Assembly: GCA_030611385.1 (NCBI GenBank)
Contig: JAUWPV010000002.1
Span: forward strand, 15,433-79,432
DNA from: Bacillota bacterium
GTDB taxonomy: Bacteria; Bacillota; Dethiobacteria; DTU022
Length of the DNA stretch: 64,000 nt
Reading direction: 5' to 3'
Made by a program: the position numbers and the translations under genes. Below, one piece after another: positions 6,904-49,555 of this stretch; position 1 is the stretch's first letter, and each line of letters opens with the position of its first letter. Below the pieces are notes generated by a model, which saw nothing but the letters and a program-made list of their open reading frames with translations, was not told the origin of the DNA and made no database searches.

Positions 6904-6985
6904 ACAGGGCCGCTAAGGATATCATTGCCAATACATAGTTGAAACTGAACGAGCAGCAAACCTTCTTCAATTGGTGGGATAGAAT

Positions 6986-9001
6986 ATGGCAAACTTGGCC
7001 TTGGGGATCGATACCGGTGGCACATTTACCGACGGAGTTATCTTCGATCTTGATCGAAAAACAGTTGAAGCTAAAACAAAAGTAGAAACTACCAGGCATG
7101 ATTTAACACTTGCCATAAACCGCTGCCTTGATAATCTGATTGTTGCGCTTAAAGAAAAGAAAGGCGATCAGATCGATATCAGACAACTCAAAATGGTTTC
7201 TTTATCGACAACGCTTGCCACCAATGCTATTGTCGAAGGTCAGGGAGCTGCGGTGGGCTTGATACAGATCGGGTTTGAACCCCGTCAGAGCCTGCCTACT
7301 CCTTACTACGCCGTTATTTCCGGCGGCTGTAACATTAAGGGCAGCATTACAGAAGAACTGGATTTATGCGCTGCTGAACAGGTAATTCTGAAAATGAAAG
7401 ATCATGTTGATACATTTGCTGTATCCGCGTACTTAAGTATCCGCAATCCGATCCAGGAAATTCAGATTTCCGAACTGATTCGCAGGCTGACCGGTTACCC
7501 GGTAGTGGCGGCGCATCAGCTCAGCACTGATTTGGGTATGCATGAACGGACAGTTACAGCCGTATTAAATGCCCGTTTGATGCCTTTGATTACTGATCTG
7601 ATAGATTCGGTTAAACAGGGTATGGAGCGCTTAAAAATTGAAGCACCCCTGATGGTAGTTCGTGGAGACGGTAGTTTGATCAGCGAAACGATGGCCCGCG
7701 AGAAGCCAATTGAAACAATATTGTCTGGTCCGGCAGCAAGTATCATCGGTGCCCTTACTTTAACTGGAGTTCAGGAAGGAATCGTTATCGACATGGGCGG
7801 TACTACCACTGATGTTGCCGTTCTTAATGATGGACGACCTTCTATAAGTAAAGAGGGGGCCCGGGTTGGCGGGTGGCTAACCAGGGTTAAAGCAGCCCGG
7901 ATAACCACAATTGGTTTGGGTGGCGATAGTTTAATCCATGTTTCAAAGGGTGCAGCGCTTTCAATCGGACCGCAGAGGGTATTTCCGCTTTCGTGGATTG
8001 TATCTCAATACCCTTATCTGGCCGATGAATTGGCCGCTATAGAGCCGAGTGATTATTCATCTATGGATACGCAGCCGACAATAATACTGACCTATATCAG
8101 AGATCCTCTCAATATCAAGATTACCGGGACAGAGCAGCAGATTATCGATCTGATAAAAGAGGGACCACATACGCTGCACTATATTGGTAATAAATTACAG
8201 AAAGAGATCGATCTTATATCGTGGCAACGATTGGTCAATGTTGCTTCTGTCCACCGTGCTTCACTGACACCGACTGATCTGCTGCATGTAAATGGCAAAT
8301 TAAACCTATGGGATTGTCGGGCGGCTGAATTGGGGACAGCTATGCTGGCCAGTCGCTATAAGGTATCCGTAATGGAGTTTGTGGATACCGTGATGGAAGA
8401 GATTCAGTTTAAACTGGCGGCGATTACTATTGACCGCCTGTTAGCTGAAGAAGGGGCTAAGTTTTCCCTGGTTGATGAAGAGGGCAGTTCCTACATCCTG
8501 AGAAAGATCTTGAACAAGCATAATGAAGGTAATACACAGCAGATTTCATTAATGGCAAGGTTAAAGCATCCAATAGTAGCTGTTGGCGCTCCGGTTGGAG
8601 CATATTTTCCTGATTTGGCTAAAAAGCTACAGGCAAAATTGTATCTTCCTCAAGATGCAGATGTCGCCAATGCGGTGGGTACAGTGAGCGGTAAAGCGGT
8701 TGAAAGAGTGACGATTCTTGTTAAACCGGGTGAAGGTGGTGGATTTCTGGTTCATACTCCGCGCCAGAGAGAATATTTTACGAATTTTGATGAAGCAATT
8801 GAATATGCCTGTAAGGAAGGCCAGCGATATGTTTACGAGCAGGCTGTTAATGCGGGTGCCTCAGACATAGAAACATTGGTCGAGCGGAAAGATCATTACA
8901 GCAAGCTCGCTTCCATGGTCGCTAGTGATCAATTTGAAAATAAACTATTTATTGAAAGCACAATCGAAGTATCTGCCGTAGGCAGGCCGTGGACTGATTG
9001 A
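6986..9001 (+). CDS. Hydantoinase A/oxoprolinase-like ASKHA-fold ATPase (HyuA-like, no HyuB partner)
   Basis: 671 aa. N-terminal GIDTGGTFTD motif of the Hydant_A_N family. Positioned between the corrinoid protein and the methyl-THF methyltransferase. Confidence 0.55.
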   Translation: MANLALGIDTGGTFTDGVIFDLDRKTVEAKTKVETTRHDLTLAINRCLDNLIVALKEKKGDQIDIRQLKMVSLSTTLATNAIVEGQGAAVGLIQIGFEPRQSLPTPYYAVISGGCNIKGSITEELDLCAAEQVILKMKDHVDTFAVSAYLSIRNPIQEIQISELIRRLTGYPVVAAHQLSTDLGMHERTVTAVLNARLMPLITDLIDSVKQGMERLKIEAPLMVVRGDGSLISETMAREKPIETILSGPAASIIGALTLTGVQEGIVIDMGGTTTDVAVLNDGRPSISKEGARVGGWLTRVKAARITTIGLGGDSLIHVSKGAALSIGPQRVFPLSWIVSQYPYLADELAAIEPSDYSSMDTQPTIILTYIRDPLNIKITGTEQQIIDLIKEGPHTLHYIGNKLQKEIDLISWQRLVNVASVHRASLTPTDLLHVNGKLNLWDCRAAELGTAMLASRYKVSVMEFVDTVMEEIQFKLAAITIDRLLAEEGAKFSLVDEEGSSYILRKILNKHNEGNTQQISLMARLKHPIVAVGAPVGAYFPDLAKKLQAKLYLPQDADVANAVGTVSGKAVERVTILVKPGEGGGFLVHTPRQREYFTNFDEAIEYACKEGQRYVYEQAVNAGASDIETLVERKDHYSKLASMVASDQFENKLFIESTIEVSAVGRPWTD

Positions 9002-9055
9002 TAATAAATTGAGGAGGTCTAGTTACCGGTTTGTTCAAATCCGGTAAGCATAATT

Positions 9056-9850
9056 ATGATTATCATTGGTGAATTGATTAACTCAACCCGTAAGGCGATT
9101 AAAAGGGCCATCGATGAACAGGATGTTGCATTTATTCAGGACTTGGCTGTTAAGCAGGAAGAAGCAGGCGCCGATTATATCGATGTTAATGCCGGGGCTT
9201 ATGTCCATGAAGAAGGGAAGCATTTAATTTGGCTGGTGGAAACCGTTCAGGCAGTGGTTAGCAAACCCCTGACGCTCGATAGTCCTGATCCTAAAGCTTT
9301 GGAAGCGGCGATGAAAGTGCATAAGGGAGTGCCGATGATCAATTCGATCAGCGCCGAGAAAGAACGCTATAATCAAGTTATGCCCCTGGTGAAAGAGTCA
9401 GGAGCCCAGGTTATTGCTCTTTGTATGAGCGATGATGGTATGCCCGAAACTGCCGATGAACGCCTGGAAGTAGCCAAGCGGCTGCTCAGCGATCTTGATA
9501 AAGATGGCATCGATCTGACCAATGTATTCCTTGACCCGCTGATTAAGCCGGTCAGCGTTAACGGAGAATACGGTCCGCAGGCGCTTGATGCTATTGAAAG
9601 AATTGCCGTTCTTGGCTCCGGGGCCCATATAACCAGCGGCTTGAGCAATATTTCCTTTGGATTACCGCATCGCGCCCTGTTGAACCAGGCTTTTATAGTT
9701 CTGGCGATGGGTCGGGGAATGGATTCAGCCATAGTTGACCCTCTTGATAAAAAGAAAATGAGTTTAGTCAAAGCCGTCGAGGTTATCTTAAATCTTGATC
9801 CTTATGCGATGAATTATCTAAAAGCCTCGCGGGCTGGCCGGTTAATTTAA
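9056..9850 (+). CDS. Methyltetrahydrofolate:corrinoid methyltransferase (pterin-binding, MtrH/AcsE/MtgA-like)
   Basis: 264 aa. TIM-barrel pterin-binding domain with DVNAG, VPMINSIS and GLSNISFG motifs shared with MtrH/AcsE/MetH pterin domains. Confidence 0.75.
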   Translation: MIIIGELINSTRKAIKRAIDEQDVAFIQDLAVKQEEAGADYIDVNAGAYVHEEGKHLIWLVETVQAVVSKPLTLDSPDPKALEAAMKVHKGVPMINSISAEKERYNQVMPLVKESGAQVIALCMSDDGMPETADERLEVAKRLLSDLDKDGIDLTNVFLDPLIKPVSVNGEYGPQALDAIERIAVLGSGAHITSGLSNISFGLPHRALLNQAFIVLAMGRGMDSAIVDPLDKKKMSLVKAVEVILNLDPYAMNYLKASRAGRLI

Positions 9851-12053: not shown

Positions 12054-12147
12054 GGGAGTAGTTAGCGGCCTGGTGGCGCTCCTGGACTTCAAATCCTGTG
12101 GCAGGGCATCCCCCTGCGGTGGGTTCGATTCCCATCTACTCCCGCCA
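12054..12147 (+). tRNA. selC: tRNA-Sec (selenocysteine tRNA, anticodon UCA)
   Basis: 94 nt. 8-bp acceptor stem GGGAGTAG/CTACTCCC, 5-bp T-stem with a TTCGATT loop, anticodon loop CU-UCA-AA, 6-bp long variable arm GCAGGG/CCCTGC, discriminator G and CCA end. Confidence 0.8.
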
Positions 12148-15436: not shown

Positions 15437-15958
15437 TTGACAGTGGATTTTGGAAAACTGAACAGAGCGCAGCTTGAGCAGTTGCTGACAGATTTCGCCA
15501 AACGCTGGCTGGCTCACGACGGCCTCTGGTTCCAACAGGTAGAACAGGCTTATGGTTTGGATGAAGCGATCAGACTCGACACAGCGGCCTGGGAACGTTT
15601 TACAGTTCTTGAAGCAGAGCGGATCATGTTATTCCTGGGCATTGAATCCGGGGGAGGCCTCAGCGCGCTCAAAGAGGCTTTACATTACAGGTTATATAAT
15701 CTGGTCAATAAGCAGGAGATTATTGAAAAAGATGAAAACAGGTTTATTTTCCGGATGAACGACTGCCGTGTTCAATCCGCTCGCCGCCGTAAACAGATGC
15801 CCGAATTTCCCTGCTGCCCGGTTGGAATCGTTGAATACAGTGGTTTTGCCCATGCCATCGATCCGCGTATTCAAACAAGGTGTCTCTATTGTCCTCCCGA
15901 TCAACACCCTGAAAACAGCTGCTGTGCCTGGGAGTTTACACTACCGAAAAATAAATAA
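15437..15958 (+). CDS. Hypothetical cysteine-rich protein (7 Cys in the C-terminal 50 residues; possible metal/FeS site)
   Basis: 173 aa, translationally coupled to the glucosidase (8-nt gap). C-terminal PCCPVG...CLYCPP...SCCAW. Confidence 0.4.
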   Translation: MTVDFGKLNRAQLEQLLTDFAKRWLAHDGLWFQQVEQAYGLDEAIRLDTAAWERFTVLEAERIMLFLGIESGGGLSALKEALHYRLYNLVNKQEIIEKDENRFIFRMNDCRVQSARRRKQMPEFPCCPVGIVEYSGFAHAIDPRIQTRCLYCPPDQHPENSCCAWEFTLPKNK

Positions 15959-16055
15959 GCTTTGATTGATCAGGTGAATTTTTAAAACATAGAGTGGTTA
16001 TACTGATACCAGAATTTTTACCGCCTGGTCAGTTTCAAAAAATATTAGAAGAGAG

Positions 16056-16083
16056 TTGCATAATTATAATATTATGATATAAT
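16056..16083 (+). promoter_or_regulatory. Promoter (TTGCAT, 16-nt spacer, TATAAT) overlapping an AT-rich palindrome ATTAT-gat-ATAAT; candidate ArsR operator
   Basis: Hexamers and inverted repeat read directly upstream of the ArsR gene. Confidence 0.45.
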
Positions 16084-16107
16084 AATATAACAGGAGGAGA
16101 ACCCGGT

Positions 16108-16389
16108 ATGGATATAGCAAGCGATATGTCATTAATCAGAGAAAAGGCGGTTCTGCTAAAAGCCCTGTCCAATCCAGTACGGCTCTGTATCGTCAGAGAA
16201 CTGATGCAACGAGAAGCATGTAACGTATCTTCTATGCAAAACTGTCTGCAACTTTCGCAGTCGACTGTTTCCCAACACCTGGGCCGTTTACGGGATATCA
16301 GAATAATTACCGGCGAACGCAAGGGAACCGAAGTTTATTACCATGTTTCCAGCGAAGAAGCAGCAAACATTATCAGGGTTCTTTTCTAA
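16108..16389 (+). CDS. ArsR/SmtB-family HTH transcriptional regulator
   Basis: 93 aa. Winged-HTH core LKALSNPVRLCIVRELM...VSSMQNCLQLSQSTVSQHL. Confidence 0.7.
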   Translation: MDIASDMSLIREKAVLLKALSNPVRLCIVRELMQREACNVSSMQNCLQLSQSTVSQHLGRLRDIRIITGERKGTEVYYHVSSEEAANIIRVLF

Positions 16390-16413
16390 ATTTCATTAAT
16401 GGGAGGTATTTTG

Positions 16414-16728
16414 ATGTTAAAAGTTACTGATGCAGCGAAAGAAAAATTTATTGAGTTTTTAGCGGAGGAGGGAAAAAAAGACGGCTATGTTCGCATATAT
16501 GTCAGTGGTGTTGGCTGAGGCGGACCTAAGTACGGCCTGACTCTGGATGAGTCGGTTCAAGAAGGTAAAGATGTTATTGAAGAATCAGGTGAGATAAAAA
16601 TTGTTTTTGATCGGGGCATCTCCGACTTTGTAGATGGTAAATCGATTGATTACCATGATGGTCCGCAGGGCGGTTTTTCAATAACGGACCCCGGGGCCAG
16701 CCAGCAGTGTGATGGCGGCTGCTGTTAA
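16414..16728 (+). CDS. HesB/IscA-like selenoprotein (in-frame TGA at 16516-16518 read as selenocysteine)
   Basis: ATG 7 nt after GGGAGG. The translation aligns with IscA across the UGA: SGVG-U-GGPKYGLTLDE against the IscA TSGCSGMAYVLEF motif, and ends in CDGGCC. The ORF track reports no ORF here because of the TGA. Confidence 0.65.
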
Positions 16729-16789
16729 GTATTTAATCAAAATAAACTTGGTTTTTAGAACTTGATTAAATCTATACAGGAGGTTAATA

Positions 16790-16912
16790 ATGGCAACACA
16801 AAAAGAACAGGTTTATAAGTGCCAGGTTTGCACTAATGTGGTTAAGGTTGTTGAAGAGGGCGTGGGAACGCTGGTCTGCTGCAACAAACCGATGGAGCTG
16901 CAGGAGAAGTAA
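16790..16912 (+). CDS. Desulforedoxin (Dx-type rubredoxin-like FeCys4 protein)
   Basis: 40 aa, MATQKEQVYKCQVCTNVVKVVEEGVGTLVCCNKPMELQEK. The C-x2-C...C-C pattern and length match desulforedoxin. RBS AGGAGG is 6 nt upstream. Confidence 0.65.
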   Translation: MATQKEQVYKCQVCTNVVKVVEEGVGTLVCCNKPMELQEK

Positions 16913-16963
16913 TAAGTAGTATTAGCATATAATTAAATATATTTATTTCAGTCGATTATGAAA

Positions 16964-17005
16964 AGCCAGGGCATTTATTGAGTAATACCCTGGCTTATAT
17001 CTTTT
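16964..17005. terminator. Bidirectional terminator hairpin AGCCAGGG-(16 nt)-CCCTGGCT followed by a T-run
   Basis: 8-bp perfect stem between the convergent desulforedoxin (+) and moaD-like (-) genes. Confidence 0.55.
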
Positions 17006-17078
17006 TCTGCTTATGTTTATCCTTTAAAAACTCCGTTGCCATTAATTTCTTTATGTATTATGATGTCCCGATCTAACT

Positions 17079-17321
17079 TTAACCTCCCGCGACACGGGGG
17101 TTAATCACGACCATTTCCCCTCCTCTGAGCGTTGCAGTCAGATCTGCTTTGTTGCCATCAATCAGAACGAAAGAAGTTGATGAGGTGGGAATGCTTAGTT
17201 TTTGCAATAGATCACGGACTGTGCATGGTTCTGCAGCAATCTCGCAATCAAACGGTTCAACTGATTGGCCGTACTTTTTCAATGGGCCTTTCAACTGCAG
17301 TTTAACAAACAATGTTCCCAC
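17079..17321 (-). CDS. MoaD/ThiS-family small sulfur-carrier-like protein (C-terminal GG)
   Basis: 80 aa ending ...RVAGG. Lies immediately downstream of the AOR gene, a common arrangement. Confidence 0.6.
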   Translation of the reverse strand: MGTLFVKLQLKGPLKKYGQSVEPFDCEIAAEPCTVRDLLQKLSIPTSSTSFVLIDGNKADLTATLRGGEMVVINPRVAGG

Positions 17322-17340
17322 CTCCCCGGGCTTTTAACCG

Positions 17341-19095
17341 TTATAGGTGCAGTTCCTTTTTCTTCGCTTCCGTTATTATACCGTTTTCATCCCAGCCACG
17401 CAGTTGATAGTAATCGGTAAGCATCTTCTCATATTCTTCACGCGGCAATAGCTTGCCTGCGGTGGTCCCAGTAGGGAGTTTCTCACTGAAGATCCGCTCA
17501 GGAAGATAGTCGTCTTTGCGGTTAAAACCTTCCCGCTCGTTGAAAAGCCGGGCCAGGTTGTAGGTACGTTCACCAATTGTGGTCAACTCTGTGGCGGTTA
17601 CTTCGCGCTCCAGGAGCAGGCTTAAGATCTCGGCCATACGCTCGGTACTCAGTGCCCAAAAATCGCAGAAGATAGCCGAAAATTTAACCGAATTATCATC
17701 CTGCATACCGATAACCAATTTGGCTTTGCCTTCACTGGTATAAGGGTCAATATCACCAAAAGCCTCGACAGCTGTTGGCCAGGCTCGCATATGGCAAGCG
17801 CCGCGGTCGGCAGTGCCGTAGGCCAGGCCCATCGCCCAGGAACCGCGCGGTTCATAACCGGGCATTTCCAACCCTTTAACCTGCATGGCAAAGTCCATGC
17901 CGCCATATTTTTCGGCCATAGCCCTGACTCCTGCTGCCAGCTCTGCTCCGACACCTTCTTTTCGGGCGATCAGCCCGGGCATTTCTAAATATTTATCTAC
18001 TTCGCCAAAATGAATTCCGAAGTCGTAAATTCCTTTTTCGGTTAGTTCCATAGCGAAGGCCACTGAGTTCCCTGCCGAGATAGTATCGAGGCAGTAATCA
18101 TCGCAGAGCCTGTTAAATTCAATAATTGCCTCGATATCGCCGATAGCACAATTGGATCCACACAGGGCCAGGGTTTCATATTCGGGGCCTTCTACCCGGG
18201 TGTCTCCTTTTTCAACATAGTTACTGCAGCCCAGTGGGCAGGCAAAGCAGGCTTTTTTCGCTTTCAGCACCCCTTTTACTGCATCAGAATTGATCTTTTT
18301 GTAGTCCTCGAATGTGCCTTCCTGAAAGTTACGGGTAGGCAGGATGCCGGAATCATGGCACAGGTCTACTAACATCGGGGTGCCGTCGCTGTAAGTCCAC
18401 ATGTTGTCATCAGTCATGGTGTCTTCGCGTTTGATTTTGTTCAAAGCTGCCGAAAATTTACGGATGTTCGGAATCTTGATTCCACCGGTTCCCCTGACTG
18501 CGATCGCTTTCAGATTTTTACTGCCCATAACAGCTCCGATACCACCCCGCCCGGCCTGGCGGTAAAGCTCTGAGCTGATGCAGGCCATCGGTAGCAGGTT
18601 TTCTCCGGCCTGGCCGATTACCATAGTGATAACATCCCCTAAGGTTTCAGCAATAATATGTTCGGTTTCATGAGCGCCTTTGCCCCAGAGGTCACCGGCG
18701 CTGCGCAATTCGACTTTCTCGTCCTCGATGTAAAGGTAAACCGGTGTTTTTGCTTTACCCTCAATGATTACGGCATCATAACCGGCGTATTTCAGCTCCG
18801 GGGCAAAGTACCCGCCAATGGAGCAATCGAGAATAGTACCGGTGGCCGGAGATTTGGCGGCGACTGCCAACTTACCGCTGTTCGGAACGATTGTACCGGT
18901 TGTCGGGCCGGTCATCAGGATCAGCTTGTTAGCCTCAGAGAGAGGATCTATCCCCGGTTCAAGTTCTTCATAGAGGTATTTAATGCTCAGACCCTTGCCC
19001 CCAAGGTAATCGCGAGCCCATTTCTCATTCAGCGGTTCTGGTTGTGCTTTTCCTGTAGAAAGATTCACTCTCAAAATCTTGCCTGTATAAGTCAT
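17341..19095 (-). CDS. aor: Aldehyde:ferredoxin oxidoreductase (tungsten-containing AOR family)
   Basis: About 585 aa. Start taken at MTYTGKILRVNLSTGK, preceded by GGAGGTGGAG. Family-typical motifs and Cys ligands (CDSG...C), the AOR N-domain and domains 2/3. Confidence 0.85.
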   Translation of the reverse strand: MTYTGKILRVNLSTGKAQPEPLNEKWARDYLGGKGLSIKYLYEELEPGIDPLSEANKLILMTGPTTGTIVPNSGKLAVAAKSPATGTILDCSIGGYFAPELKYAGYDAVIIEGKAKTPVYLYIEDEKVELRSAGDLWGKGAHETEHIIAETLGDVITMVIGQAGENLLPMACISSELYRQAGRGGIGAVMGSKNLKAIAVRGTGGIKIPNIRKFSAALNKIKREDTMTDDNMWTYSDGTPMLVDLCHDSGILPTRNFQEGTFEDYKKINSDAVKGVLKAKKACFACPLGCSNYVEKGDTRVEGPEYETLALCGSNCAIGDIEAIIEFNRLCDDYCLDTISAGNSVAFAMELTEKGIYDFGIHFGEVDKYLEMPGLIARKEGVGAELAAGVRAMAEKYGGMDFAMQVKGLEMPGYEPRGSWAMGLAYGTADRGACHMRAWPTAVEAFGDIDPYTSEGKAKLVIGMQDDNSVKFSAIFCDFWALSTERMAEILSLLLEREVTATELTTIGERTYNLARLFNEREGFNRKDDYLPERIFSEKLPTGTTAGKLLPREEYEKMLTDYYQLRGWDENGIITEAKKKELHL

Positions 19096-19487
19096 TATCG
19101 CTCCACCTCCGCAAAGATCAGTGCTTCTGTCGGGCACCAGTTAGCGCAACTGTGGCATTGGACACAAACACCAATACCCGTTTCTTTATTTACAATAACC
19201 TGGTTGGGGCAGATGTCAACGCAGATATCGCAATCAGTGCAGAGATCTTCTAAAAACGAAAGGCGCCCCTGCTTTTCTATGATCGCATCAACCGGGCATG
19301 CTTCGACGCATTTAAGGCAAAGATCGCAGGTTTGTCCTCCTACTACCAGCCCGTTGCGATCATAGCGCGAAGTTATTTTTAAACGGGCCAGGCGGGGGTT
19401 GAACTCTTCTTCATTCTGTGCGCTGCAGGCCAGGTGGCAGAGCTTGCAGCCTATGCATTTTTCAGCATGAAAAAACAATGCTTTCAA
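19095..19487 (-). CDS. Poly-[4Fe-4S] ferredoxin (four CxxCxxCxxxCP-type clusters)
   Basis: 130 aa with 16 Cys arranged in ferredoxin motifs. Its stop overlaps the AOR start (TAATG). Confidence 0.7.
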   Translation of the reverse strand: MKALFFHAEKCIGCKLCHLACSAQNEEEFNPRLARLKITSRYDRNGLVVGGQTCDLCLKCVEACPVDAIIEKQGRLSFLEDLCTDCDICVDICPNQVIVNKETGIGVCVQCHSCANWCPTEALIFAEVER

Positions 19488-30915: not shown

Positions 30916-32754
30916 TTAATTGTTCCGGAAGGGCAGGGCATTAACAAAAATATCCTGAAAATCCGGGCGGGTGGAAAGTTCCAGATGTTCAACTTTTTCT
31001 GGGGTAGTCAGCGCCCTGGCCCGCACCGCTTTTGAAGCAAGGGCCATTTTCGATCCGTCACCGGCTGCGTTACCAACGGCAATAATTTTTTCCGGCGGTA
31101 GTTGGGGCAGTAGTCCAATAGTTAGAGCGCTTTCTTTACGCACATAGTTGCCGAAGGCGCCGGCTAACAGGACCTGATCAAGATCGTTTTCACTGATGCC
31201 GGCCTCCTTTAGCAGAATCATCAGGCCGGCGTAGATTGCCCCCTTAGCCAGCTGTAGTTCGCGTAGATCGCCCTGGGTTAGCACCAGATCATCACCGGTT
31301 TCAGATTTAGCACCGGGAACGAGAACAAATTCAAAGCCGCCCGGGCCGCGCCGCAGCCGATCCTTAAAGCAGGCGGGAACCTCATCCGGGTTTTCCTCCG
31401 GGTTGATAAAACGGCCGCTTGGCTCGATTAAGCCGGCATCGAGCAGCGCGGCGGCAGCGTCGATCAATCCCGAACCGCAGATGCCGCAGGCCGGAGTATT
31501 GCCAATAATACTCAGCTCGATATCACCATTAACGTAGCTGACCGCCTCGATCGCTCCAGCTGCGGCTCGCATACCCTGTTTGATCTGCGCTCCCTCAAAA
31601 GCAGGGCCGGCTGCGGTTGAACAGGCCGTTAGTTTGCCGTTTGCAACCAGCACCAGCTCGCCGTTGGTACCAATGTCGATTGCCGCGCAGATGTCCCTGC
31701 GCCGGTCCATATTCGTGGCCAGAATCACTCCGACGGTATCAGAACCGATATAACCGGCTATATTTGGTAGAAAAACTACTCTTCCCGCAGGGTTTATCTT
31801 TAACCCAAGTTCGGAGGCCTCCACATCCAGAGCCCGGCTGTAAGCAGGAATAAAAGGCGCGGGAGCCAGGTAGGCTGGGTCTACGCCCATAAAAAAATGA
31901 CTCATCGTTGTATTGCCGACGATGACTATTTCATAAACATGATCACGCGCAATTTTAGTTTGTCTGAGTAGATCCCTGATAATCTCGTTTGCGGACCCGA
32001 TCACTTTATCCTGCAGCTGTTTTAAGCCGCCTTTAACCTGGGAGGCGTGAGTGATCCGCGAGATCACATCGGCGCCGTAAATGTTTTGAGGGTTGGTAGC
32101 CGCTGCTACCGCCAGAACCGCAGCCGTTTTTAAATCGAGCAACGAACCGACGATCGTGGTTGTTCCGATATCGAAAGCGATTCCGTATAGCTGGTCAGTA
32201 GTATCGCCTGGTTCGATCGAGATAAGTCGGCTTCCACTGATGACCACAGTTACTGAAAAGCCGTTATTTCTCAGCAGGGCGGGTAAACCCGCAAGTTCGC
32301 GCAGGTTAACTGTAAGGTTCGGGCGATCCAACTTTATGAGCAGCCTTTCTAAGTCGGCCACCTGGTCTTTAAGCGCCGGTAGGTCCAGTTTGACTGCTAT
32401 TTTTTCCACGAACGGTTCTGCCTCAAGGTTTTCCACTCCACCGGGCATAGTTGTTTTTCGGGTGTAGGCGTCTCTTTGCAGAGGCACTTCAACAACACAA
32501 TTCTGTTCAACTTTCCTCGTGCAGGCCAGCACCCAGCCGGCTTTCAGTTCACTGTCTGATAGCTGTTCTTTTTCGGCGTCCGTGGGGTCGCCGCGGTTTC
32601 CTTCGATAACCTTTACCCGACACTTGCCACAGGTGCCCTTGCCGGCGCAATCTCCTTCAACATATAGGCCAGCCTGGTCAGCTGCTTTAAGTAAATTTGT
32701 TCCGCTTTCAACTTCGATTAATTTGTTTTGGGGGATAAATTTAACTTTAAGCAT
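30916..32754 (-). CDS. RACo/AcsV-like reductive activator of corrinoid enzymes (N-terminal plant-type [2Fe-2S] ferredoxin domain plus ASKHA ATPase/DUF4445)
   Basis: 612 aa. N-terminal CAGKGTCGKCRV...C ferredoxin motif followed by an ASKHA-fold domain typical of RACE proteins. Confidence 0.7.
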   Translation of the reverse strand: MLKVKFIPQNKLIEVESGTNLLKAADQAGLYVEGDCAGKGTCGKCRVKVIEGNRGDPTDAEKEQLSDSELKAGWVLACTRKVEQNCVVEVPLQRDAYTRKTTMPGGVENLEAEPFVEKIAVKLDLPALKDQVADLERLLIKLDRPNLTVNLRELAGLPALLRNNGFSVTVVISGSRLISIEPGDTTDQLYGIAFDIGTTTIVGSLLDLKTAAVLAVAAATNPQNIYGADVISRITHASQVKGGLKQLQDKVIGSANEIIRDLLRQTKIARDHVYEIVIVGNTTMSHFFMGVDPAYLAPAPFIPAYSRALDVEASELGLKINPAGRVVFLPNIAGYIGSDTVGVILATNMDRRRDICAAIDIGTNGELVLVANGKLTACSTAAGPAFEGAQIKQGMRAAAGAIEAVSYVNGDIELSIIGNTPACGICGSGLIDAAAALLDAGLIEPSGRFINPEENPDEVPACFKDRLRRGPGGFEFVLVPGAKSETGDDLVLTQGDLRELQLAKGAIYAGLMILLKEAGISENDLDQVLLAGAFGNYVRKESALTIGLLPQLPPEKIIAVGNAAGDGSKMALASKAVRARALTTPEKVEHLELSTRPDFQDIFVNALPFRNN

Positions 32755-33133: not shown

Positions 33134-33151
33134 AAGTGAGGAGGTTTGGTT

Positions 33152-34459
33152 TTGCCGGAAGAATATTTGTACCACTATTTACCTAATGGAATCAGGTTAA
33201 TCTTTATGCCGATCAAGAAGTTTAAAACAATTTCGATGGGATTATTCTTGCATCAGGAGCTGACCCCGGAAGTTGCTGCTGCAAATGCTCTCCTGCCGGC
33301 AGTACTCGAACAGGGCAGTCGGCTCTACCCCGATTATCTGACCCTGCAGCGGGAACTTGAAAACCTCTACGGTGCCGAATTGGACACAGATATCATTAAA
33401 AGCGGTGAACGACATATTCTTGCCTTTACTCTGGAAATGGCCCATAACCGTTATTTAGGAGAAAATGACAGACTGTTGCGTAAAGGAATGTCCGTTCTCG
33501 GTTCGGTGGTTAGTGATCCGCTCGTCATCGATGGTTCTTTCAGGGAAGATTATGTGGCCCAGGAGAAGACCCAGTTGATTAAAGATATCAAAGCGCTGCT
33601 TAACGATAAAGCAGCTTATGCCCTTGAACGCTGTCTGGCTTTGATGTGTGCGGAAGAGAGATTTGGCATCAACAAACTTGGCCGGGTCGAAGATTACAGG
33701 TCGATTGGTGCGGACAGGTTATACAGCTATTATCAAGATCTCTTCTTGCACAACCCCATTGATTTATATGTCATTGGTGACCTGGAAGAAGAAGAGGTAG
33801 TCAGTGCAGCCGGTGATCTGTTTAACTTTACCCACAACGTAGAGGGGAAAGCACTTCCTGAAACTGAGATTATGCAACAGGTTTCGGAAGTAAAATTAAG
33901 TGAAGAAGCGATGACTGTCAATCAGGGCAAACTGGTCCTTGGTTTTCGCACCTATACTGGTTACCAGGACGAGCTGTACTGTTCACTGCTCGTATACAAC
34001 GGTGTATTAGGTGGGTTTCCGCATTCCAAGCTCTTCATGAAGGTACGGGAAGAAGCGGGTCTGGCCTACTATATTAATACCCGTCTGGAAAGGCACAAGG
34101 GGCTTATGGTTATGACGGCCGGAATCAATTATGCAGATTACCAAAAGGTGCGGAAAATCATCGATCGTCAGCTTGAGGATATGGCCTCGGGGAAAATCAG
34201 TGATGTCGAACTCGACAATACCAGGCGAGGCCTGATCAACCAGCTGCGTTCTCAACAGGACAGCCCTAACCAGCTGATCGCTGTTCACCTTGACGGTTCT
34301 GTCGGAGGTAAAACGTATACCATTGAAGAACTCAGCGCCGGTATTGACGCGGTTGGGCGGGAAGAGGTTATGGCTGCAGCCGAACGGGTTAAACTGGATA
34401 CGGTTTACCTGCTGCGGCCCCGGGAAGGAGAAATGGAAAACAATGGCTGTTCACTGTAA
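33152..34459 (+). CDS. M16-family (pitrilysin/insulinase-like) peptidase subunit lacking the HxxEH zinc motif (non-catalytic partner type)
   Basis: Start taken at the in-frame TTG 7 nt after GGAGG. Peptidase_M16 N and C domains; no HxxEH. Confidence 0.6.
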   Translation: MPEEYLYHYLPNGIRLIFMPIKKFKTISMGLFLHQELTPEVAAANALLPAVLEQGSRLYPDYLTLQRELENLYGAELDTDIIKSGERHILAFTLEMAHNRYLGENDRLLRKGMSVLGSVVSDPLVIDGSFREDYVAQEKTQLIKDIKALLNDKAAYALERCLALMCAEERFGINKLGRVEDYRSIGADRLYSYYQDLFLHNPIDLYVIGDLEEEEVVSAAGDLFNFTHNVEGKALPETEIMQQVSEVKLSEEAMTVNQGKLVLGFRTYTGYQDELYCSLLVYNGVLGGFPHSKLFMKVREEAGLAYYINTRLERHKGLMVMTAGINYADYQKVRKIIDRQLEDMASGKISDVELDNTRRGLINQLRSQQDSPNQLIAVHLDGSVGGKTYTIEELSAGIDAVGREEVMAAAERVKLDTVYLLRPREGEMENNGCSL

Positions 34460-35750
34460 TTTGATTGAGAATGGTGCTCTGCAGGAAACTCTTTATTACT
34501 ACCGGCTTTACCCGGGTTTGGATCTCTATGTTTTGCCTAAGCCGGGTTACTATAAAAAATACGCCATTTTTTCGACCCGCTTCGGATCAATCGATAACCG
34601 CTTCCGGGTGGAAACGGGAGGGGAGATTAGCATAGTGCCGGATGGGGTGGCTCATTTCCTCGAGCATAAACTTTTTGAAGACGACCGGGGTAATGTCTTT
34701 GACCGTTTCGCCGCACTTGGGGGTTCGGCCAATGCCTTTACCTCTTTTACACAGACTGCTTACCTCTTTTCCTGTACTGCTAATTTTGAGAAAAACTTTC
34801 AGCTGCTGCTCGATTTTGTACAGGAACCCTATTTTACGGAACAAACAGTACAGAAAGAGCAGGGGATTATCGGTCAGGAGATCAAGATGTACGAAGATCA
34901 CCCGCACTGGAGAGTCTTTTTTAACCTGCTGGAGGCGCTTTACCGTGAGCATCCGGTACGCAATGATATCGCCGGTACAGCGGAAAGCATCGCCATGATT
35001 ACCCCGGAACTTTTGTATCGCTGTTATAACACCTTCTATCATCCCAGCAATATGGCTCTCTTTGTAGTTGGGGATTTGACGCCGGACGATGTGAGCCGAC
35101 AGGTGGAAGCGAACCTGGCTGGACGCGATTACCAGCCGATGGGCTCGATCGTGCGCATCTATCCGCAGGAACCGGCAGAGATAACCAGAGATCGCACGGT
35201 CCAGGAACTGGTAGTTTCCGAGCCGATTTTTTTCCTTGGGTTTAAAGATATGGTTGTGGAGAAATTGGCTGGGCGGGATCTGATGCGCCGGGAAATCCTG
35301 ATGGAACTGGTTCTTGATATCATGTTTGGAACCAGCGAAGCGCTCTACAATGATCTCTATCGCGACGATCTGATTGACATAAACTTTGGAGCGGAATATA
35401 CTGCCGAAAACAACTATGCCTATACCATGATCGGTGGCGAAACGAAGGAACCCGAGCAGCTATATCAAAGGATTATGGAGACGGTGCTTAAAGCTAAAAA
35501 GGAAGGGATCACGTCAGAGCAGTTTGAGCGCCACCGCCGTAAAATTTTGGGAGGTTATATCAGACGATTCAACTCGCTTGAAGTTATTGCCAATAATTTC
35601 CTGGCATACCGTTTTAGGGACACGGATCTTTTCGAACTGCCGTCAATCCTACATGAAATCAGACGTGAAGAGGCCATCGCTTTGATTGAGGAAAACTTCG
35701 AACCGGCCCGTCATGCCGTTTCCCTGATTCTGCCTCAGGCGGACGGGTAG
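34443..35750 (+). CDS. M16-family zinc peptidase (HFLEH zinc-binding motif present)
   Basis: Start at MAVHCNLIENG, overlapping the upstream stop. HxxEH motif at VAHFLEHKLFE. Confidence 0.7.
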   Translation: MAVHCNLIENGALQETLYYYRLYPGLDLYVLPKPGYYKKYAIFSTRFGSIDNRFRVETGGEISIVPDGVAHFLEHKLFEDDRGNVFDRFAALGGSANAFTSFTQTAYLFSCTANFEKNFQLLLDFVQEPYFTEQTVQKEQGIIGQEIKMYEDHPHWRVFFNLLEALYREHPVRNDIAGTAESIAMITPELLYRCYNTFYHPSNMALFVVGDLTPDDVSRQVEANLAGRDYQPMGSIVRIYPQEPAEITRDRTVQELVVSEPIFFLGFKDMVVEKLAGRDLMRREILMELVLDIMFGTSEALYNDLYRDDLIDINFGAEYTAENNYAYTMIGGETKEPEQLYQRIMETVLKAKKEGITSEQFERHRRKILGGYIRRFNSLEVIANNFLAYRFRDTDLFELPSILHEIRREEAIALIEENFEPARHAVSLILPQADG

Positions 35751-42398: not shown

Positions 42399-42890
42399 TT
42401 GAACACAGACGCTGAAGCTACAGCAATCAATCAGGAAATTGATTTACACCAGGTCGATTCTATCATTGAGCCATATATCGGCAGGAAAGAAATGATTATA
42501 CCAGTTTTGCAAAAATTACAGGAACATTTCGGTTATCTGCCCCGACAGACCATGGAACAGGTATCCTACCGGATGCATATTCCCTTGAGCCGCATCTATG
42601 GCGTGGCTACTTTCTATGCCCAGTTTAAGATGAGACCGCGGGGTCGCAATATCATCAGGGTTTGTAAAGGTACCGCCTGTCATATTCAGGGCAGTCCGAA
42701 GATTGCCGAACGGATTGAAGAGAACCTCGCTATCCAAAATGGGGAGACCACAACCGACCTGCGGTTTACCCTTGAAGAGGTTGCCTGTATCGGGGCTTGT
42801 GCCTTAGCTCCGGTTATTATGATTAACGACAATCCGCATGGCCGGCTGACCGCAGACAAGATTAAAGATATCCTGGCGAGCTACAAATAA
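42399..42890 (+). CDS. NuoE/FdsG-like [2Fe-2S] thioredoxin-fold subunit of an NAD-linked dehydrogenase
   Basis: TTG start 8 nt after GGGAGG. Four Cys (CKGTAC...C...C) in the NuoE pattern. Confidence 0.75.
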   Translation: MNTDAEATAINQEIDLHQVDSIIEPYIGRKEMIIPVLQKLQEHFGYLPRQTMEQVSYRMHIPLSRIYGVATFYAQFKMRPRGRNIIRVCKGTACHIQGSPKIAERIEENLAIQNGETTTDLRFTLEEVACIGACALAPVIMINDNPHGRLTADKIKDILASYK

Positions 42891-42916
42891 AGAATAGAGC
42901 TGGAGGAGGTGGCCTT

Positions 42917-43096
42917 GTGAACAAGTTTATTGATCAATGCTGCGACAAATGCACCCACACCAGAAGCACACCCTGTAAAGACTTTATCAGATGCTGCGTG
43001 GAAGGACCTGTTTGCCATGAAGATCTGGTTTGTTCTGCCAAAAGAAAGGCGATTATTGAAAAGGTTGCCCTGAATGAAAATTTTGTGATCTGTTAA
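42917..43096 (+). CDS. Small cysteine-rich protein (59 aa, 10 Cys) between the NuoE-like and NuoF-like genes
   Basis: GTG start after GGAGGAGGTGG. Translation VNKFIDQCCDKCTHTRSTPCKDFIRCCVEGPVCHEDLVCSAKRKAIIEKVALNENFVIC. Below the ORF-track cutoff. Confidence 0.35.
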   Translation: MNKFIDQCCDKCTHTRSTPCKDFIRCCVEGPVCHEDLVCSAKRKAIIEKVALNENFVIC

Positions 43097-43129
43097 TAGC
43101 TATGTTCAGGCAAAGGGGGGTACCGGATT

Positions 43130-44947
43130 TTGTATGAAAAACATCTAATGATTTGTGGAGCCACGGGTTGTATTTCATCAGGTTCGCGCTCGGTTGAGCA
43201 GGCCCTGGTTAAAGAACTCGAAAATCATGGCATCAGAGATAGATACCGTCTGGTCATGGGTGGTTGCCCCGGATTTTGTGAGGTAGGGCCTATTCTGGTG
43301 ATCTACCCGGATGAAGTTTTCTACTGCCACCTGACACCGAAAGACATGGTCGAACTGGTTGAAAAGCACCTGGTCGGCGGTGAGATTGTTGAACGGCTGC
43401 TCTACAAGGGTCCGGATGTTGCTGTGCCGGTTCGCTTCTACGATTCAATTCCTTTCTATGCCAAGCAGAAATTCAATGTTCTGCACAACAGCGGCATCAT
43501 TGACCCGGAAAGCATCGATGAGTATATAATGCGCGGTGGTTACCGCGCTTTTACACGCGCCCTGACTATTGATTCGCTGACAATTTGTGAAGAAGTTAAA
43601 GAGTCTGGTCTGCGTGGTCGCGGAGGCGCTGGATTTTCGACCGGTCAGAAGTGGGAATTCACCAATAAGGCTCCCGGACCGAAAAAGTATGTTGTCTGTA
43701 ACGCTGATGAAGGCGACCCAGGGGCATTTATGGATCGCAGCATTCTCGAAGGCGATCCTCATGCTATACTCGAAGGGATGCTGATTTGCGGCCGGGCTAT
43801 TGGTTCCAACGAAGGCTATATCTACTGCCGGGCTGAATACCCTCTGGCCATAAAAAGACTGAAAATCGCCATTAGCCAGGCCTTAGAATACGGCCTGTTG
43901 GGAGAAAACATACTCGGTTATGGCTTCAACTTCAAGATCAATATCAAGGAAGGGGCCGGCGCTTTTGTTTGCGGTGAAGAAACCGCTTTGCTTGCTTCGA
44001 TTGAAGGCAAGAGGGGTATACCCCGCCCGCGTCCGCCATTTCCGGCTCAGTCCGGTCTTTTTGGTAAACCGACTACGATCAACAATGTCGAAACCCTGGC
44101 CAATATTCCCCTGATCGTCAGGGAGGGCGGTGCGGCCGAGTTCGCGCAGATTGGCACAGCGGGCAGTAAGGGCACGAAAGTGTTTGCCCTGGCTGGAAAG
44201 ATTCGCAATACCGGGCTCTGCGAGGTGCCGATGGGCATTACTTTCAGGGAGATTATCTATGATGTCGGTGGAGGAATTAAAGGCGGACGGGAATTCAAGG
44301 CAGTTCAGGCTGGGGGCCCGTCGGGTGGATGTATTCCGACAGAACTGCTTGATTTGCCGATTGATTACGACTCACTGAATAAAGCCGGAGCGATCATGGG
44401 TTCAGGCGGCTTGGTGGTTATGGATGAAAGTACCTGCATGGTTGATCTGGCCCGTTACTTTTTAAGCTTCACACAAAAAGAATCATGCGGCAAGTGCACA
44501 CCCTGTCGTGAAGGAACCATGCGCATGCTCGAGATTCTGAACCGTATCACCGGGGGTTTTGGTAATCCGGAAGATCTTGATACTCTCGACAGTCTGGCGC
44601 ACAGTATCAAAGACAGTTCTTTGTGCGGTCTCGGACAGACCTGTCCAAACCCGGTCTTGAGCACGATCCGTTATTTCAGGCACGAATACGAAGAACATAT
44701 TGAAGAAAAGTACTGCCGTGCCGGTGTCTGTAAGGCGCTTTTCAGCTATAAAATTGATCAGGAGCGATGTACCGGCTGCAGGGCTTGTGTGAAAGCCTGT
44801 CCTGTTGATGCAATCACGGGCGAGAAAAAGGAACCTCATGAAATTGATCAGGGGCGCTGCACCCACTGTGGCAGCTGTATTGAAAAATGCCGACAGGATT
44901 GCATTCTGATCACTCGCGTAGGGAGGGAAGCCGATGTCAGCAATTAA
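43130..44947 (+). CDS. NuoF/FdsB/HndC-like NAD(H)-binding flavoprotein subunit (N-terminal Trx-like [2Fe-2S] domain plus FMN/NADH domain plus C-terminal 2x[4Fe-4S])
   Basis: 605 aa. GxGxxG FMN/NADH motifs, SLBB domain, C-terminal CxxCxxCxxxCP pair. Confidence 0.8.
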   Translation: MYEKHLMICGATGCISSGSRSVEQALVKELENHGIRDRYRLVMGGCPGFCEVGPILVIYPDEVFYCHLTPKDMVELVEKHLVGGEIVERLLYKGPDVAVPVRFYDSIPFYAKQKFNVLHNSGIIDPESIDEYIMRGGYRAFTRALTIDSLTICEEVKESGLRGRGGAGFSTGQKWEFTNKAPGPKKYVVCNADEGDPGAFMDRSILEGDPHAILEGMLICGRAIGSNEGYIYCRAEYPLAIKRLKIAISQALEYGLLGENILGYGFNFKINIKEGAGAFVCGEETALLASIEGKRGIPRPRPPFPAQSGLFGKPTTINNVETLANIPLIVREGGAAEFAQIGTAGSKGTKVFALAGKIRNTGLCEVPMGITFREIIYDVGGGIKGGREFKAVQAGGPSGGCIPTELLDLPIDYDSLNKAGAIMGSGGLVVMDESTCMVDLARYFLSFTQKESCGKCTPCREGTMRMLEILNRITGGFGNPEDLDTLDSLAHSIKDSSLCGLGQTCPNPVLSTIRYFRHEYEEHIEEKYCRAGVCKALFSYKIDQERCTGCRACVKACPVDAITGEKKEPHEIDQGRCTHCGSCIEKCRQDCILITRVGREADVSN

Positions 44948-47363: not shown

Positions 47364-47399
47364 GAAGTGAGAACTGAATATAACCGGAGGTGACCGGTA

Positions 47400-48752: not shown

Positions 48753-48763
48753 AGAGTATTTCA

Positions 48764-49555
48764 ATGGAACAGAAAAGAGCGGTGCACAAAACGATCATCA
48801 GGATTCGACAGGGCGAGCGGGAAGAGAAGCAGGATCTGATCACAGTCGAAGCCCCCGTGACCATCTATCTTAACGGTAGAGAACTGGTCACTTTGCTCTG
48901 TACTCCGGAAAAGATCGATCGCCTTGCTTTAGGGTTTTTACGCTCTGAAGGTATAATTACTGCGATTGACGATGTGGCTTCCATTCGCGTTAGGGATGAA
49001 GAAGGATTAGTCGAGATCGACCTGAAATGCGAAACAGACTTGATCGAGAAACTCTATGGTAAACGGACGATAACTTCGGGTTGCGGTAAAGGAACCGTTT
49101 TTTTTAATGTGCTCGATTCACTACGCAGCAGCCCACTTGAAGGCGACCTGAAGATCAGCGCTGGCAAAATCTGGTTTCTGATGGAGTCGCTGGAGGAAAG
49201 AGCGGAGCTGTTCAAATCAACCGGTTGTGTACATAGTGCTGCCCTGGCCGATCAAGAACAGATTCTCTGTTTTTTTGAAGACATCGGTCGTCACAACGCT
49301 ATTGATAAAATTATCGGCGAGTGCCTGCTGGCCGGAATCCCAACTGATGATAAGATTATTGTGTCGAGTGGCCGTTTAAGTTCGGAGATTTTGCTGAAAG
49401 CTGCCAAGTTGAAAATACAGCTGCTCGTTTCCCGGGCTGCTCCGACCTCTCTTTGCATCGAACTGGCCGAGAGTTTAAATGTCACCCTGGCCGGTTTTGT
49501 CAGGGGAAAACGAACAAATATATACACTCATGGATGGAGGATTACAGCAGACTGA
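48764..49555 (+). CDS. fdhD: Formate dehydrogenase accessory sulfurtransferase FdhD
   Basis: Start at MEQKRAVHK, 12 nt after the bglA stop. Catalytic-Cys loop TSGCGKG and GRHNAIDK motif. Confidence 0.75.
   Translation: MEQKRAVHKTIIRIRQGEREEKQDLITVEAPVTIYLNGRELVTLLCTPEKIDRLALGFLRSEGIITAIDDVASIRVRDEEGLVEIDLKCETDLIEKLYGKRTITSGCGKGTVFFNVLDSLRSSPLEGDLKISAGKIWFLMESLEERAELFKSTGCVHSAALADQEQILCFFEDIGRHNAIDKIIGECLLAGIPTDDKIIVSSGRLSSEILLKAAKLKIQLLVSRAAPTSLCIELAESLNVTLAGFVRGKRTNIYTHGWRITAD

Follow-up and report, generated by a model that had tools for sequence, protein, structure and literature searches.

Organization of the arsR-hesB(U)-dx locus

We analysed a stretch of 64,000 nt of genomic DNA from a Bacillota bacterium (contig JAUWPV010000002.1), referred to here as the window, with a focus on a cassette of three genes, arsR-hesB(U)-dx, which occupies positions 16056-17008 of the forward strand including its promoter and a downstream hairpin (Table 1). 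The cassette encodes a winged-helix repressor of the ArsR/SmtB family, a HesB/IscA-like protein with an in-frame UGA codon (U denotes selenocysteine, Sec) and a stand-alone desulforedoxin. The best overall explanation of the locus, to which we assign a probability of roughly 0.8, is an autoregulated three-gene operon in which hesB(U) is decoded with Sec at the UGA codon. The identity of the genes, Sec decoding and operon organization, taken jointly, are proposed with high confidence.

Table 1. Positions of the features of the arsR-hesB(U)-dx cassette and of selC in the window
Feature	Position	Strand	Remarks
selC (tRNA-Sec, anticodon UCA)	12054-12147	+	Found by ARAGORN and Rfam RF01852
Promoter and overlapping putative operator	16056-16086	+	Read from sequence; conserved block TTGCATaATTatAATATTATGATATAATaAT
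Ribosome-binding site of arsR	16092-16099	+	AGGAGGAG
arsR	16108-16389	+	93 aa; ArsR/SmtB-family winged-helix repressor
Ribosome-binding site of hesB(U)	16401-16406	+	GGGAGG
hesB(U)	16414-16728	+	104 codons; HesB/IscA-like selenoprotein gene
Predicted Sec codon UGA (codon 35)	16516-16518	+	Same codon TGA in all readable homologous loci
Predicted bacterial SECIS hairpin	16537-16555	+	CUGACUC-UGGAU-GAGUCGG; 7-bp stem; 5-nt apical loop at 16544-16548
Ribosome-binding site of dx	16778-16783	+	AGGAGG
dx	16790-16912	+	40-aa stand-alone desulforedoxin
Terminator-like hairpin	16964-17008	+	Arms AGCCAGGG (16964-16971) and CCCUGGCU (16988-16995), then UAUAUCUUUUUCU

When one genome per GTDB species was scanned, 39 loci were found (hereafter, the clade), mostly titled Syntrophomonadaceae or Bacillota metagenome-assembled genomes (MAGs), many of them from soda-lake sediments. 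The order of the three genes on one strand was kept in approximately 35 related genomes and in nearly all clade loci with enough flanking sequence. In the window, arsR and hesB(U) are separated by 24 nt, and hesB(U) and dx by 61 nt, with a separate ribosome-binding site for every gene; the length of the hesB(U)-dx spacer ranged from 17 to 63 nt across clade loci. A candidate hairpin in the 61-nt spacer was not significant (z 0.25) and was rejected.

The promoter upstream of arsR consists of a -35 hexamer TTGCAT (16056-16061), a 16-nt spacer and an extended -10 element (TGnTATAAT), made up of TG (16075-16076) and TATAAT (16078-16083). It is overlapped by an imperfect AT-rich dyad, for example with arms at 16064-16075 and 16079-16090 (12-nt arms, 92% complementary), and nested AT-rich inverted repeats are also present in the promoter spacer. 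The conserved block was kept upstream of arsR in 34 loci, with the spacer as conserved as the hexamers; the sequence farther upstream was not alignable. We infer from these sequence features that the dyad would be the binding site of the ArsR repressor on its own promoter. In two distant loci, L040 and L041, neither hesB(U) nor arsR was preceded by the operator motif of the clade. In both, the region before hesB(U) (L040 5851-6003; L041 5043-5200) contains a GATAAT -10-like element and, after it, a short GC palindrome (ACCCCUGGGGGU or ACCCGUAGGG) that could form a shared leader hairpin.

At the distal end of the cassette, the segment 16913-17015 folded at -25.9 kcal/mol (z -3.66), with a GC-rich hairpin followed by a U-run. 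This hairpin, which separates the operon from the convergent MoaD-like and aldehyde:ferredoxin-oxidoreductase (AOR)-like genes, was missed by a consensus terminator scan because its loop is longer than 8 nt, and it probably acts as a terminator. The gene spacing, the single conserved promoter and the single terminator suggest that arsR, hesB(U) and dx are co-transcribed.

A sequence-only reading of the window had proposed a palindromic, operator-like promoter, a HesB-like gene missed by the open reading frame (ORF) track, a 40-aa desulforedoxin after this gene, and a tRNA-Sec gene about 4 kb upstream. All four were recovered: an AT-rich promoter with a dyad does begin at 16056, its operator function being putative; the ORF lister gives only a 39-aa stub (16399-16518) that ends at the TGA; the dx frame passed both the PF06397 and TIGR00319 models; and selC lies 4.4 kb upstream on the same strand.

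Decoding of the in-frame UGA codon

The translation of hesB(U) contains a single in-frame TGA at codon 35, in the context ...YVSGVG*GGPKYGLTLDES.... All 40 loci first examined in which this position could be read (38 genome loci and two metagenome contigs) have TGA at this codon, at protein identities of 43-99%. A metagenome scan run with a four-sequence alignment detected dozens more loci, with approximately 20 lineages outside the clade, each with TGA in G-U-G-G-P. This motif, which fits the published U-x-G-P motif, was invariant in all Sec-type sequences, and more distant homologues carry Cys, in GGGCSG, at the Sec column. Codon 35 aligned with the ligand Cys35 of E. coli IscA, and C99 with IscA Cys99; the alignment with HI1723 also placed position 35 on a ligand Cys. 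The TGA thus stands where the sequence-only reading had put it, at the first cluster-ligand Cys, and the homologues showed Cys or TGA, never the gap that this reading had named as a counter-indication. In addition, the tRNA-Sec gene was detected by both ARAGORN and Rfam, in the latter at 70 bits compared with a gathering cut-off of 47.

If the TGA were a genuine stop, the gene would be a pseudogene or two short unrelated ORFs, in agreement with standard ORF calling, which ends at 16518, and with public annotations, which give a 34-aa stub. However, every locus keeps the TGA together with the frame before and after it, at 43-99% identity, protein-level selection persists downstream of the TGA, and the dedicated hairpin after the TGA also speaks against a genuine stop. 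A pseudogene is ruled out by the conservation of the frame on both sides, and we leave this explanation a negligible probability.

A second alternative is the decoding of UGA as Trp or another standard amino acid via reassignment of the genetic code. A protein search over 5.8 billion predicted proteins gave nine full-length homologues (P0001-P0009; 59-99% identity), all of which are stored with Trp at the Sec position, as expected from such a reassignment. Their DNA reads TGA, however, and the stored translations disagree with the DNA under translation table 11; given that the contigs are only approximately 0.7-2 kb long, the Trp entries are most likely an artefact of gene calling with table 4. 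In the window, TGA is the ordinary stop of 7 of 48 ORFs, the long ORFs are intact under table 11 and the Trp content is normal, and therefore code reassignment is excluded. The presence of tRNA-Sec also counts against it, leaving a vanishingly small chance for this explanation.

The second incorrect form in the databases is a stub of 34 residues cut at the UGA (L127 4326-4430; L128 967-1071). Because either Trp forms or 34-residue stubs are stored, surveys of predicted proteins miss or mislabel HesB-like selenoproteins. Two representative proteins, P0011 and P0014, are on contigs of <1 kb with no usable gene context. A scan of the window for other long frames broken by a single TGA gave nothing convincing.

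The predicted SECIS hairpin

Folding of the sequence downstream of the UGA had been suggested in the sequence-only reading, and a hairpin with the properties of a bacterial Sec insertion sequence (SECIS) was found there (Table 1). The bacterial SECIS model, as quoted in PMC13188914, specifies a loop of 3-9 nt, an upper stem of 4-16 bp, a UGA-loop spacing of 16-37 nt, a G at one of the first two loop positions with G or U after it, and a minimum free energy of -7.5 kcal/mol or lower. The hairpin falls within all four constraints of this model: a 5-nt loop tops a stem of 7 bp, 25 nt separate the end of the UGA (16518) from the start of this loop (16544), and the 26-nt element 16534-16559 folded at -11.0 kcal/mol (z -3.27), a value matched by 0 of 200 shuffles.

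The codons that form the hairpin are frozen in the clade. In 35 sequences, Thr43 was ACT, Leu44 was CTG and Glu46 was GAG without exception (35/35 each), compared with approximately 90% GAA at the other conserved Glu columns of the gene, and Val48 was always GTT. The normalised codon entropy was 0.096 for the hairpin codons against 0.74 elsewhere, representing the lowest contiguous window in the gene (permutation p<1e-5). The Gly-Gly-Pro codons right after the UGA are nearly saturated (1.7-1.9 bits). A different hairpin, the first after the UGA, in GGNGGNCCN...GGNC, was drawn by RNAfold in many sequences; it was rejected, as its third-codon positions vary freely (1.7-1.9 bits) and its pairing is not kept.

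Both G residues of the UGGAU loop were invariant in 39 clade and 27 diverse sequences. In the latter, which represent the wider Sec-type family, compensatory double changes were detected at five of the seven pairs (for example, A-U to G-C; G-C to U-A or A-U; U-A to A-U). In these sequences, 91.5% of the cells were paired, and 0 of 500 shuffles reached any of five measures; when the 3' partners were slid, pairing was reduced to 20-43%. Cys-type homologues showed no hairpin at the equivalent place, with folds of 0 to -3.8 kcal/mol. The evidence for the predicted SECIS is about as strong as computation allows.

The HesB(U) protein and the desulforedoxin

HesB(U) is a protein of 104 residues with the motif G-U-G-G-P and the tail C99-DGG-C103-C104. 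When the stop was replaced by Cys, the protein scored 34.3 bits with Pfam PF01521 (cut-off 26.3) and 65.3 bits with NCBIfam TIGR00049 (cut-off 58.8). With U replaced by C, it scored under the curated cut-offs of the two Sec-type models, TIGR01911 (46.2 against 66.35) and NF038090 (57.2 against 85).

These two models, HesB_rel_seleno and IscA_HesB_Se, respectively, describe the HesB-like selenoproteins, a family with members in Methanococcus maripaludis, Desulfitobacterium hafniense, Geobacter and Symbiobacterium (PMC1794560, PMC11097638, PMC13188914). Eleven members were counted in 2006 (PMC1794560), and the family was listed with the motif UxGP and the model TIGR01911 in a 2026 review (PMC13188914); the member of M. 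maripaludis was confirmed by 75Se labelling, with its function described as 'not clear' (PMC11097638). The statement of the sequence-only reading that such a family is known is thus supported by family models and published members (TIGR01911, NF038090, PMC1794560). The protein of the window shares with these proteins the small HesB/IscA fold, the UGA at the first conserved Cys, the U-x-G-P motif (UGGP here), a SECIS directly downstream and the occurrence in anaerobes. In contrast to them, it lies below both curated cut-offs, has a Cys-rich tail and is encoded in a cassette with ArsR and a desulforedoxin. We regard HesB(U) as a new member, in a distinct subclade, of this known family.

The ligands of IscA-type proteins are Cys35, Cys99 and Cys101. 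HesB(U) resembles IscA, SufA and ErpA (E. coli IscA, 1s98/1r94; H. influenzae HI1723, 2apn) in the PF01521/TIGR00049 fold and in positions 35 and 99, which fall on ligands. It differs from them in the replacement of Cys35 by Sec, in the loss of C99-x-C101, in the lack of an isc/suf context, and in the Sec-type relatives, which mostly have one Cys after Sec. The canonical triad of C35 and C99-x-C101 is accordingly absent: HesB(U) has U35, C99, C103 and C104, with no CxC. In the clade, the tails are Cys-rich, with three or more Cys in the arrangement C-x3-CC or C-x2-C-x-C. In the non-clade Sec forms, a C-terminal Cys was present in 20 of 20 complete sequences (as the last residue, or the second-to-last in two), and 13 of the 20 had no other Cys after Sec. 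Because all of these forms end in Cys and 13 lack any other, the conserved pair is Sec and the C-terminal Cys, a combination closer in appearance to a redox-active selenenylsulfide pair than to a triad that binds a cluster.

The product of dx scored 61.5 bits with PF06397 (cut-off 23) and 59.4 bits with TIGR00319 (cut-off 36.05). It matches the desulforedoxin of D. gigas (1cfw/1dxg) and the N-terminal domain of desulfoferrodoxin, with which it shares the stand-alone form of 36-40 residues and the C-x2-C...C-C set of Fe(Cys)4 ligands, here C11, C14, C30 and C31. A superoxide-reductase domain is lacking: the 40-aa ORF ends at 16912, with the terminator-like hairpin after it. Unlike that of the D. 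gigas protein, the gene of this desulforedoxin shares an operon with those of a selenoprotein and ArsR, in Bacillota of soda-lake and other anoxic sediments, and nearly all clade loci have dx after hesB(U). Desulforedoxin belongs to the one-electron iron proteins.

The ArsR regulator

The ArsR protein of the cassette scored 38.1 bits with Pfam HTH_20, 34.2 bits with HTH_5, and 80.2 bits with NCBIfam NF033788 (cut-off 55). Three Cys residues were invariant in approximately 35 orthologues, namely, C27 in alpha2 and C38 and C46 in alpha3. The nearest solved relatives are non-metal members of the family, of which PagR is the closest, the others being HlyU, BigR, NolR and YgaV. Inspection of the alignment showed the absence of the canonical alpha3 (CVC-x2-C), alpha3N and alpha5 (D-x-H-x10-H-x2-E) metal sites: the CVC position holds one Cys only, alpha5 offers no His/Asp ligand, and the protein ends at residue 93. 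The sequence-only reading had named this protein an ArsR/SmtB metal-sensing repressor; the family assignment stands, with thresholds passed, but the metal-sensing part is not supported, given the lack of canonical metal sites and the non-metal relatives.

Among thiol-based, non-metal ArsR sensors, BigR, SqrR and HlyU respond to persulfide with Cys residues in alpha2 and alpha5, and RexT to peroxide with a Cys pair in alpha3 (PMC10054925). The ArsR of the window resembles these sensors in its short fold without metal sites, in Cys residues in alpha2 and alpha3, in its position as the first gene of an operon, and in a rhodanese-reductase neighbour in relatives. With C27 in alpha2, C38 and C46 in alpha3 and none in alpha5, it nonetheless fits neither of the described dithiol arrangements. 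The alpha2/alpha5 Cys pair of persulfide sensors was absent, as the alpha2 Cys lies three residues away from that of BigR and alpha5 has none; the BigR model NF040642 gave 57.7 bits (cut-off 155); and the pattern differs from the alpha3 pair of RexT.

The same three-Cys ArsR subtype was observed in four other gene contexts. In L131 (4001-6661), it is directly followed by a 558-aa CoA-disulfide-reductase (CoADR)-like protein with a C-terminal rhodanese domain and then by hesB(U), with no desulforedoxin. In L041, the same subtype, directly ahead of the same reductase-rhodanese fusion (together 6954-9080), is located 1.5 kb past the selD-selA-selB-hesB(U) cluster. In L124 (3940-4643), the gene of another small selenoprotein comes directly after that of a three-Cys ArsR (72% identical) whose AT-rich operator is similar. 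The selenoprotein belongs to the CC/Se-motif family NF041239 (55.5 bits, cut-off 40), with the in-frame TGA in C-R-S-U. This family, first predicted in Moorella, shares with HesB(U) the position behind such a regulator and operator; it is a separate family with a C-x-x-U motif and is absent from the window. A DsbD-transmembrane-like fragment comes after the CC/Se-motif gene in L124. In L129, an ArsR of this subtype is followed by an MscS-type channel gene.

Persulfide-sensing ArsR proteins are typically encoded next to rhodanese-containing reductases, and peroxide-sensing ones next to NADH oxidoreductases (PMC10054925). The three invariant Cys residues of the ArsR of the cassette point to a thiol-based sensor. 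Taken with its gene contexts and its lack of metal sites, the protein is more likely to be a thiol-based redox or chalcogen sensor than a metal sensor.

The competing idea of a response to soft metals or metalloids supposes that As(III), Cd, Hg or a similar ion releases ArsR, and that HesB(U) and the desulforedoxin sequester or buffer this ion via Sec and Cys. The regulator does belong to the ArsR/SmtB family, its three invariant Cys residues could make a trigonal thiolate site, and both HesB(U) and the desulforedoxin are rich in Cys or Sec. Against these points stand the missing canonical alpha3 (CVC), alpha3N and alpha5 sites, the non-metal sensors as nearest solved relatives, and a cassette without any transporter, arsenate reductase or efflux gene. 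We consider a metal response quite unlikely.

Linkage to the Sec machinery

A tRNA-Sec gene was located 0.2-5.7 kb upstream of the cassette on the same strand in 19 of the 39 genome loci, and likewise in many metagenome loci. Between selC and the cassette, only a DUF6125 gene was found in some loci, and no gene in L028. In the two most distant Bacillota homologues, both from MAGs, hesB(U) directly follows selB, in the order selC-selD-selA-selB-hesB(U) in L040 (643-6297) and selD-selA-selB-hesB(U) in L041 (285-5493). In addition, hesB(U) lies 1.3-2.6 kb from oppositely oriented sel clusters, selC-selA-selB-selD in L091/L092 and selC-selA-selB in L114/L115. No sel neighbour was detected within 8-kb flanks of the Sec-type loci L103, L079/L080, L090 and L117, and none of the Cys-type loci had a sel neighbour. 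The genes selA, selB and selD, for which the sequence-only reading had advised a search, were not found in the window, but they lie directly upstream of the orthologue in the distant relatives L040 and L041. The linkage of hesB(U) to sel genes may reflect function, or merely co-inheritance with the decoding genes.

The DUF6125 gene of the window (15437-15958, forward strand; 257.9 bits) is directly upstream of arsR, and its product has a Cys-rich C-terminus (..FPCCP..CLYCPP..SCCAWEF). It is kept upstream of arsR in most clade loci, often as the sole gene between selC and arsR. In L054, hesB(U) is preceded on its contig by two tRNA-Sec genes, at distances of 2.7 and 7.7 kb.

This linkage bears on the hypothesis of a selenium-trafficking module, in which Sec35 and the terminal Cys would carry a Se-Se or Se-S adduct toward SelD, ArsR would sense selenium, and the desulforedoxin or the CoADR-rhodanese fusion would reduce the adduct. 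Such a module is consistent with hesB(U) right after selD-selA-selB in L040 and L041, with selC ahead in L040, with the nearby sel clusters in L091/L092 and L114/L115, and with the selC linkage in 19 of 39 clade genomes; the same ArsR subtype before another small selenoprotein gene in L124, and the rhodanese-containing reductase as a partner in L131 and L041, also agree with it. It is weakened by the several Sec-type lineages without a sel neighbour in their 8-kb flanks, by the possibility that sel linkage of selenoprotein genes stems from co-transfer, by the lack of selD in the window, and by the lack of a biochemical precedent for a HesB fold carrying selenium. Overall, we rate selenium trafficking as improbable.

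Proposed role of the cassette

For the role of the operon, we tentatively propose, at somewhat below even odds, a redox module of the selenol/thiol type acting on oxidants or reactive chalcogens (persulfide/polysulfide, selenium species or peroxide), in which Sec35 and the C-terminal Cys would react as a pair. Besides sel genes, the neighbours of Sec-type loci include thioredoxin-reductase-like and peroxiredoxin-like genes and the CoADR-rhodanese fusion, and no isc, suf or nif gene was seen beside any Sec-type locus examined. Because hesB(U) is linked to selC or selD-selA-selB and to the CoADR-rhodanese fusion, chalcogen or redox chemistry is indicated over Fe-S assembly, and redox or chalcogen handling is favoured over classical Fe-S delivery. 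The sequence-only reading had left the choice wider, with a metal- or redox-responsive unit for Fe/S or Se handling; the flanking ArsR and desulforedoxin on which it relied are indeed conserved, but plain Fe-S assembly is disfavoured by the gene context.

The opposite view, in which HesB(U) is a canonical A-type Fe-S carrier, would have iron or a cluster held by Sec35 and the tail Cys residues, with the desulforedoxin giving an electron or iron and ArsR tuning expression to Fe-S demand or damage. HesB(U) passes the PF01521 and TIGR00049 thresholds, its Sec35 and C99 fall on Cys35 and Cys99, two ligands of IscA, three or more tail Cys are kept in the clade, and desulforedoxin is an iron-cysteine redox protein, all in accordance with this view. 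However, the second and third ligands have lost their CxC spacing in favour of C-x3-CC or C-x2-C-x-C, most Sec-type relatives have a single Cys after Sec, and isc, suf and nif are missing near every Sec-type locus inspected. Moreover, N2 fixation was unimpaired in a mutant of M. maripaludis with a disrupted HesB-like gene (an unpublished observation cited in PMC11097638). An Fe-S carrier function is possible but, in our estimation, rather unlikely.

Under the preferred reading of a redox or chalcogen-handling module, transcription would start from the sigma-70-type promoter TTGCAT-16 nt-TGnTATAAT, with an ArsR dimer on the overlapping AT-rich dyad, and the repressor would be released when an oxidant or thiophile modifies C27, C38 and C46. 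A ribosome arriving at the UGA of codon 35 would meet SelB with Sec-tRNA(Sec) on the hairpin, leading to the insertion of Sec, a step with strong comparative support. The predicted product is a 104-residue A-type-carrier fold with Sec in place of the ligand Cys35, beside a Cys-rich C-terminal tail, and the co-expressed 40-residue Fe(Cys)4 desulforedoxin would be its likely redox partner.

Several points weigh against the interpretation given above. Sec insertion, co-transcription, the binding of ArsR and the inducer of ArsR are all inferred. As for the hairpin, the stem never varies in the clade, and within-clade covariation is therefore uninformative, which is why the wider Sec-type family was needed; a 76-nt fold (16505-16580) was no more stable than its shuffles (z -0.16); and neither an Rfam scan of the window at gathering cut-offs nor a permissive scan of 15900-17100 returned a SECIS family, giving noise only. 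Bacterial SECIS elements are too variable for the Rfam library. As for the machinery, selA, selB and selD were not found among the 46 window ORFs scanned, and selenoprotein genes often adjoin sel genes through co-inheritance, not shared function. As for the role, the desulforedoxin fits an iron or Fe-S function at least as well as Se-S chemistry, and, with three or more tail Cys kept, the clade proteins may bind a cluster.

Other features of the window

Convergent on the operon, a MoaD/ThiS-like ORF of 80 aa and an AOR-like gene are located at 17079-19137 on the reverse strand. Many related loci carry the same pair 2-6 kb downstream, with inserts that vary, and its association with the cassette is therefore probably only synteny. 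A 6S RNA was identified at 62008-62187 on the forward strand (Rfam RF00013, 99.6 bits). The region 42399-49555 (forward strand) contains a NuoF-like gene and an 809-aa formate-dehydrogenase-alpha-like gene with Fer2_4, NADH-G and molybdopterin domains, followed by genes for a GH1 glycosidase and FdhD. The formate-dehydrogenase-like ORF has no in-frame TGA and therefore appears to encode a Cys-type enzyme in a Sec-decoding organism. A methyltetrahydrofolate:corrinoid/iron-sulfur protein methyltransferase (9056-9850, forward strand) and a RACo-type corrinoid activase (30916-32754, reverse strand) hint at Wood-Ljungdahl or corrinoid-dependent metabolism. At 33146-35750 (forward strand), two M16-peptidase-like ORFs overlap by approximately 170 nt as listed, and the second probably starts later.

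Implications for HesB-like selenoproteins

HesB-like selenoproteins have appeared in every survey of prokaryotic selenoproteomes since approximately 2004, and their function has been open for twenty years. The literature searched, an incomplete collection, contained no account of the arsR-hesB(U)-dx cassette or its operator, nor of the sel linkage or the CoADR-rhodanese variant. These features appear to be unreported, as do the occurrence of the three-Cys ArsR subtype beside another small selenoprotein and the pairing of Sec with a C-terminal Cys in Sec forms. The SECIS of this locus provides a clean example of such an element, backed by frozen synonymous sites plus covariation.

On a more speculative level, and with a probability that we regard as low, HesB-like selenoproteins might be selenol/thiol carriers of sulfane sulfur or selenium and not Fe-S carriers. 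They would work alongside the Sec machinery, for instance as suppliers or buffers of selenium for SelD, under the control of a new three-Cys ArsR subtype that senses reactive chalcogen, and with a reductase as partner (the desulforedoxin, or the CoADR-rhodanese fusion in relatives). If true, the family would thereby gain a function, and a regulon responsive to selenium or persulfide would be defined.

The selenoprotein itself is no surprise; it is the conserved regulatory cassette and its context that make the function of HesB-like selenoproteins experimentally approachable. The dedicated repressor and its strongly conserved operator allow a search for the inducer by electrophoretic mobility shift assay or reporter assay, and the desulforedoxin in the same cassette offers a candidate redox partner.

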